A DNA stretch of 64,000 nucleotides from Schmidtea polychroa (Eukaryota), in contig CM097885.1 of the NCBI GenBank assembly GCA_044892525.1, forward strand, positions 13,084,001 through 13,148,000, in the 5' to 3' direction. The notes under the pieces were generated by a model. The model had not been told where the DNA came from. It did no database searches and saw nothing but the letters and a program-made list of their open reading frames with translations. Made by a program: the position numbers and the translations under genes. Positions 23,676 through 23,933 of this stretch are shown here, piece after piece (within the stretch, counting starts at the first letter, position 1; the number at the start of each line of letters is the position of its first letter).

Positions 23676-23753
23676 AACCCTGATAGCGCAGTGGGACTCA
23701 ATCAGTAGTAAGAATAGGCAGCGGTTCAAATCCCAAGTCAAACTATTTTTTTT
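23676..23753 (+). ncRNA. Putative Pol III tRNA-like unit 1 (copy A)
   Basis: A-box TAGCGCAGTGG (23684-23694), B-box GGTTCAAATCC (23723-23733), T8 terminator (23746-23753); no convincing cloverleaf. Confidence 0.55.
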
Positions 23754-23848
23754 ATAAATATTATTTTCATAATATTCTACTACTTTTTTTGTTCTTAAAT
23801 AGAATATTTAATTTTCTATGTTTAATGGGAAAAAGAAATTTTGGAAAC

Positions 23849-23933
23849 AAGATTGCTGGCTCAGTTGGAATAGACTGGCACAGTGGTTCAAATGGATAGT
23901 GGTTCAAATCTCAACTGAAATTAGTTTTTTTTT
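23849..23933 (+). ncRNA. Putative Pol III tRNA-like unit 2 (copy A)
   Basis: A-boxes TGGCTCAGTTGG (23857) and TGGCACAGTGG (23876), B-box GGTTCAAATC (23901), T9 run (23925-23933). Confidence 0.55.

Follow-up and report, generated by a model that had tools for sequence, protein, structure and literature searches.

A lineage-specific candidate cassette of Pol III-type RNA units between capsid gene and terminus in a Polinton family

Introduction

Do Polintons, the integrating relatives of adenoviruses, carry Pol III RNA units of their own, and if so, are these bound to the element, kept by selection and capable of giving a structured RNA? Adenoviruses, herpesviruses and a bocavirus are known to deploy non-coding RNAs made by Pol III as weapons; a search of mostly open-access literature returned no description of such an RNA in a Polinton. 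A cassette combining a visible tRNA origin, successive stages of divergence, a structured RNA and sister elements devoid of units would show how such RNAs rise from host tRNA genes, and would test whether a virus-like transposon resists small-RNA silencing by means of an RNA rather than a protein. With ~2000 copies in the genome, the RNA would also be easy to look for.

Two Polinton Copies and Their Short Units

The 64-kb stretch of DNA analysed here (the window) comes from an AT-rich genome of 781 Mb and contains two copies, A and B, of one Polinton family. Copy B (32785..45697) is bounded by terminal inverted repeats (TIRs) of ~370 bp that start with AGTAGT, and displays the AG...CT ends and 6-bp target duplication of Polinton/Maverick elements; it has genes for pPolB and a packaging ATPase and what is left of an integrase gene, its capsid gene having been removed, together with the 5' half of the unit U3 described below, by a deletion of ~2.3 kb. 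Copy A (approximately 20142..24451) is left-truncated and decayed, retaining ATPase and integrase remnants, a broken capsid gene, the RNA units and the right terminus; its fragmented major capsid protein gene (22244..23533, minus strand; PF21738, E 6.9e-9) is oriented away from the RNA units. The family thus displays the Polinton/Maverick gene set of pPolB (PF03175), integrase (PF00665), packaging ATPase (PF04665) and double-jelly-roll capsid (PF21738), the last taken from copy A and sibling elements. TIR length varies with the subfamily from ~250 bp to ~3 kb, and long TIRs bring RNA units to both ends, with the capsid gene also duplicated in one case. The integrase bears an N-terminal motif that may correspond to the phospholipase A2 domain of parvovirus type (PLA2X) known from adintoviruses. 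Several copies directly adjoin the PolB of a distant Polinton family (five loci), hinting at nested insertion.

An earlier note on this DNA had drawn attention to two tandem units in copy A, each made of an A-box, a B-box and a run of eight or nine T, and every box and T-run proved to be in place. U1 spans 23676..23753 on the plus strand (A-box 23684, B-box 23723, T8 23746-23753) and U2 spans 23853..23933, also on the plus strand (A-box 23857, B-box 23901, T9 23925-23933), a second B-box-like copy preceding the B-box. Decay has reached these units, U1 being short by 5 nt and the U2 A-box being unlike that of the siblings shown. The recurrence of U2 in copy B (44702..44785, plus strand) can be read directly from its A-box at 44710, B-box at 44754 and T8 at 44778-44785, and what had been noted as a further T-arm (44262..44300, plus strand; B-box 44271, T8 44293-44300) turns out to be the 3' half of U3, a unit that is whole and tRNA-Cys-like in sibling copies. 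Between U3 and U2, and overlapping into the latter, lies an ORF of 98 codons (44456..44752, plus strand) with 68-97% identity in most siblings shown. Four types of short unit, U1, U2, U3 and U5, exist in the family; the first three present the A- and B-boxes at tRNA-like spacing (43-44 nt) followed by a T-run that characterize Pol III type-2 genes, and the B-box of U5 is degenerate, its final C missing.

This arrangement exceeds chance. A scan of the window for A-box, B-box and T5 returns three full units (U1 and the U2 of either copy) against a mean of 0.05 and a maximum of 1 in 60 block shuffles; when the T-run is not demanded, five matches are found against a mean of 0.53 and a maximum of 3, the two extra matches being a further unit, U4, in copies A and B. 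None of the short units appears to be a working tRNA gene. ARAGORN calls no tRNA gene in the window or in any of seven sibling loci, and U1 and U2 have no Rfam tRNA match at E<=10, which bears out the earlier impression, gained by eye, that they do not form a normal cloverleaf. Compared with shuffled sequences, the predicted folds of U1 and U2 are nothing unusual (z +0.6 to -0.9), and that of U3 reaches z -2.5.

A Cassette Bound to the Element

The units belong to the Polinton and are Polinton-specific. A 25-nt core of U2 has 977 exact matches in the genome (its reversed control has none), and each of the first 30 in positional order has a capsid, PolB or integrase gene no more than 1.5 kb away. 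A 26-nt core of U4 has 2844 matches; among the first 30 by position, 25 adjoin capsid or PolB and five adjoin the 98-codon ORF and other units. The earlier note would have given up its proposal had the units been a host SINE found mostly outside Polintons; in these samples, all 30 U2 and all 30 U4 matches sit in Polinton context, and the dispersed copies outside the carrier that a tRNA-derived SINE would leave are not among them. Viewed from the capsid side, a capsid motif has 2078 matches in the genome, and at least one unit accompanies 28 of the first 30 (25 by scan and three more with U5).

The layout follows the element. In the common young subfamily, U5, U3, the 98-codon ORF, U2, U4 and the terminal repeat follow one another outward from the start of the capsid gene, and in older copies such as A the units run U1, U2, U4, U3. 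Every unit points toward the terminus. In subfamilies with long terminal repeats, the units are subterminal at both ends and face outward, and in many copies the cassette occupies a single end.

Constraint on the Boxes

If the boxes matter, they should vary less than their flanks, a condition on which the earlier note had staked its reading. The boxes of U2 do vary less. Across 115 loci anchored on flanking sequence (6 of the 121 anchored rows, of other lengths, being left out), variants present in 4 or more loci occupy 2 of the 22 box columns against 24 of the 58 neighbouring columns (Fisher p 0.004, and 0.001-0.006 at thresholds of 3-5), a p value that is optimistic since the loci are related and recombining and their independence is therefore overstated. 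Both variable box columns are positions tolerated by the box pattern. Rare variants show no depletion in the A-box, as expected if copies decay after insertion. The boxes of U3 carry no shared variant among 72 loci, and the 60 loci of U5 offer too little variation for the comparison. Some older copies of U3 and U2 have 16-nt deletions in common. The cassette is under apparent constraint.

Proposed Origin from a Host tRNA Gene

A host tRNA-Cys gene can be aligned with the whole of U3, the match covering D-arm, anticodon loop and T-loop. Against shuffled sequences, its similarity to host tRNAs gives z values of 8.4-10.1 for Cys, 6.5-6.9 for Lys and ~2 for Arg; the Cys assignment rests on these three isotypes because an Rfam survey of host tRNAs yielded, in the loci read, no arrays other than those of Lys and Arg. 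On the Rfam tRNA model (cut-off 29 bits), U3 scores 32.4 bits; its acceptor and anticodon stems are broken, and the cloverleaf is not intact. The A-B spacer is 33 nt in U1, U2 and U3 and 32 nt in host tRNA-Cys. Between any two of U1, U2 and U3, the boxes agree at 18-20 of 22 letters and the spacers at 14-20 of 33 (42-61%). We infer from these alignments that a host tRNA gene was captured, then duplicated and diverged. Host tRNA genes stand in long single-isotype tandem arrays (a tRNA-Cys pattern has 993 matches, and there are Lys and Arg arrays as well), found at C1:269250638 onward, at C4:76658343 onward and on contigs C140, C333 and C474.

U4, a Long Folded Unit

U4 is of another kind and was absent from the units of the earlier note. 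It is ~370 nt long and spans 44949..45319 on the plus strand of copy B (A-box 44959, B-box 45002, T4 45316-45319); in copy A, its 3' end is cut (24069..24318, plus strand; A-box 24080, B-box 24124). The boxes are followed by several predicted helices, then by a closing 3' stem at ~45262-45315 with an A-rich loop, and by the T4. The A-box has one mismatch; the B-box, which we take to be an initiator-type variant, is also paired in a predicted helix, and an inner T4 occurs at 45041. A long hairpin at ~45155-45215 has 25 pairs, 8 of them G-U, and its energy is -24.2 kcal/mol on the sense strand versus -2.1 kcal/mol on the antisense strand; this difference points to an RNA and not to a DNA palindrome. 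The whole fold of U4 likewise gives z -7.05 in sense versus -4.33 in antisense.

Conservation of the fold was assessed on an alignment of 37 rows out of 51 cluster representatives of 114 loci. In this alignment, 94% of the cells at paired positions can pair, and 7 pairs have double changes (as many in 9 of 500 shuffles); the covariation score of the whole structure is not significant for these 37 rows, 46 of 500 shuffles being as high. The clearest compensatory case is an A-U/G-C swap in the 3' stem, found in 7 of the 37 rows and in 34 of the 114 loci. Taking all confident pairs, 17 shared variants keep pairing and 18 break it; the breaking ones are concentrated in the head and in a hairpin that is replaced in part of the family, and the long hairpin and 3' stem have 8 that keep versus 2 that break. 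That replacement is found in one subfamily, whose inner hairpin has given way to an unrelated sequence with pairing of its own. All 37 rows keep the terminal T4. Applied to a mixed alignment, RNAalifold recovers the structure in part only, with a covariation term of -0.62.

Rfam offers no credible family for U4, and the U4 head fails to score as a tRNA. A two-box pattern for an initiator-tRNA origin gave no match in the host, and antisense matches of U4 to the rest of one element do not go beyond chance. Because U1 and U2 fold unremarkably, U4 is the better candidate for a VA-like RNA.

Distribution among Polintons

The earlier note had attributed the units to this Polinton family; Polintons as a whole do not share the cassette. 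Five sister elements, complete from repeat to repeat and with capsids 90-93% identical, contain no unit of any type, and the cassette is thus an accessory, as these sister elements do without it. On a capsid tree of 50 loci, units are present in 33 and absent from 16, and 6-8 changes are needed; the remaining locus, masked upstream, stands outside this count, the underlying scan missed U5, and some rows scored as lacking units may be truncated. End exchange and truncation probably contribute to this patchy presence.

Beyond this family, a second family of Polintons with a capsid gene yielded no comparable unit in eight stretches of 20 kb, not all of which reach both ends; its A-B matches lie in coding DNA at other spacings, with the exception of one weak non-coding match. 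In that family, a gene for a TBP-like protein (PF00352) stands head-to-head with the ATPase gene. A palindromic PolB-only family is without units in the three elements inspected. Its elements consist almost wholly of two inverted arms of ~6.8-7.1 kb, each with a PolB gene of 1270 codons and no other long ORF, and occur in many copies (for example C2:165706500-165726499). Two scans of viral contigs yielded no relative of the capsid, and 32 metagenome loci (93,166 bases), mostly short and devoid of element ends, contain no A-B match. Within the elements read, the cassette is confined to part of one Polinton family in the genome studied.

RNA Data, Proposed Mechanism and Alternatives

Twelve sequencing runs were considered, none of them on record as RNA, and the contigs of four presumed-RNA runs were compared with the cassette. 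U4 and U2 are covered in three of the four (two studies) and U3 in one; these contigs also span the spacers, the 98-codon ORF and the capsid gene, and their cover is not unit-specific. A peak of summed contig depth on U4 was discarded as evidence of expression: depth cannot rank the parts of the cassette, and priming on the A-runs of U4 could mimic such a peak.

In type-2 promoters, TFIIIC binds the internal A- and B-boxes and Pol III ends at T-runs. The explanation that we favour, with moderate confidence and from sequence features, is that the stretch between capsid gene and terminus carries a cassette of putative Pol III units giving several RNAs of 75-85 nt and a folded U4 RNA of ~370 nt that would act as a precursor or decoy. 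TFIIIC would bind the internal boxes of each unit, as type-2 promoter biology predicts for such sequences, and host Pol III would read each unit outward and stop at its T-run. The short RNAs would resemble tRNAs yet be incapable of decoding, and U4 would be the functional product, with its hairpin serving as a small-RNA precursor or decoy. In a planarian, Polintons are reported to be subject to silencing by PIWI and at the chromatin level (PMC8532177); such targeting would supply a motive for a counter-defence RNA, if the present host is comparable. More tentatively, the U4 hairpin may be cut into small RNAs, or bind dsRNA or small-RNA proteins, and so help the element against silencing. A wider picture can be drawn, and is doubtful as a whole: animal Polintons would have independently built VA- or TMER-like counter-defence RNAs from host tRNA genes; U4 would be a Pol III RNA made in abundance, with a hairpin that is either diced or obstructs host small-RNA silencing; and gain of the cassette would explain why the majority of capsid-bearing copies in the family now belong to this lineage.

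Four alternatives deserve consideration. The boxes might act as DNA, the subterminal TFIIIC/Pol III sites being chromatin barriers that stop silencing from advancing across the element, and any RNA a by-product. The subterminal position of the units, found at both ends and facing outward in long-repeat subfamilies, suits such a role, as does the keeping of the U1 and U2 boxes without a notable fold; Pol III-dependent and TFIIIC-only barriers are known (PMC2040200, PMC3395662), and the PIWI/chromatin silencing described in the planarian (PMC8532177) would give barriers a use in a comparable host. A barrier has no need, however, for a strand-specific structure of 370 nt, a G-U-rich hairpin or compensatory change, and many copies have the cassette at a single end, which makes this alternative unlikely overall. 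Alternatively, the units could be neutral passengers, a single captured tRNA gene having been amplified by tandem duplication and end exchange, with box conservation reflecting shared descent. Sister elements that do without units, variable unit number and order, the 16-nt deletions common to some older U3 and U2 copies and the weak overall covariation of U4 are all in line with this; boxes, spacing and T-runs nevertheless persist while spacers fall to 42-61% identity, the richness of the U4 hairpin in G-U pairs is confined to one strand, and the replaced hairpin still pairs, so that neutrality appears distinctly unlikely.

It is also conceivable that only the short units are Pol III genes, U4 being something else, for example a product of Pol II or a cis-element with structure close to the terminus, and that its likeness to Pol III boxes is due to chance. 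Agreement between the U4 boxes and those of the short units is limited to 6-8 of 11 letters for the A-box and 7-8 of 11 for the B-box, no matching initiator-tRNA pattern is found in the host, and U4 has an AATAAA-like A-run at which loose poly-A ends occur in the presumed-RNA contigs. Yet the A-B spacing of U4 is like that of the other units and host tRNA-Cys (a spacer of 32-33 nt), its orientation is the same, and its invariant T4 comes directly after the closing stem; the probability left to this alternative is small. A tRNA-like head with an A-rich 3' region is the anatomy of a SINE and U4 has both, but that a host SINE landed by chance in a Polinton is hardly credible and already largely refuted, since no sampled match is free of Polinton context (0/30 for U2, 0/30 for U4).

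Comparison with Known Systems

tRNA-like Pol III promoters have been described in LTRs (PMC10886601). The Helenus, Ajax and Cassandra LTR retrotransposons have a promoter of this type, which the cassette boxes resemble; there it drives the RNA intermediate of a retroelement, whereas a Polinton copies as DNA, and the cassette units differ in facing outward and ending at T-runs. tRNA-derived genes, along with other ncRNA genes, have also been reported in polinton-like viruses and virophages, where the tRNAs are read as codon compensation (PMC12220804). Those genes, as presented there, are called by Rfam or ARAGORN; the cassette units, in contrast, have broken acceptor and anticodon stems and no ARAGORN call.

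Adenoviruses and Polintons are related, and VA RNA, an inhibitor of dsRNA-sensing or Dicer pathways, is ~160 nt long, unlike the units of 75-85 and ~370 nt described here. VA RNA I and II combine internal A- and B-boxes, a proposed tRNA origin and wobble-rich stems (PMC6599070); the cassette is alike on all three counts, the wobble-rich stems being those of U4. The VA plan has an apical stem, a central domain and a GGGU/ACCC tetrastem. In U4, GGGU/ACCC lies in the predicted 5' closing stem instead of a central junction, and a match of four letters may be fortuitous. When searched with Rfam, VA covariance models included, the units returned no VA family among 5 and 13 matches at E<=10. The earlier proposal of VA-RNA equivalents thus survives in part: the units are Polinton-bound, their boxes are kept and U3 is tRNA-like, but they lack a VA match and U1 and U2 fold in an ordinary manner.

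The TMERs (tRNA-miRNA-encoded RNAs) of murine gammaherpesvirus 68 (MHV68) have a tRNA-like Pol III 5' part followed by hairpins that are processed to miRNAs (PMC8223928). They share with the cassette the grouping of several type-2 Pol III units, putative ones in the cassette, within a viral or virus-like DNA and their character as degenerate tRNA look-alikes, and the layout of U4 fits a tRNA-like head with hairpins, though the U4 head fails tRNA scoring. In comparison, TMERs are viral and the cassette resides in an integrating Polinton; U1, U2, U3 and U5 stop right after the B-box, without downstream hairpins; and U4, at ~370 nt and with A-rich loops, resembles TMERs in layout and not visibly in sequence. 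The locus is best read as a lineage-specific candidate cassette of Pol III RNAs whose layout is nearer to that of herpesvirus TMERs than to that of VA RNA; it resembles the TMER cluster most, and VA RNA by analogy, while being a member of neither.
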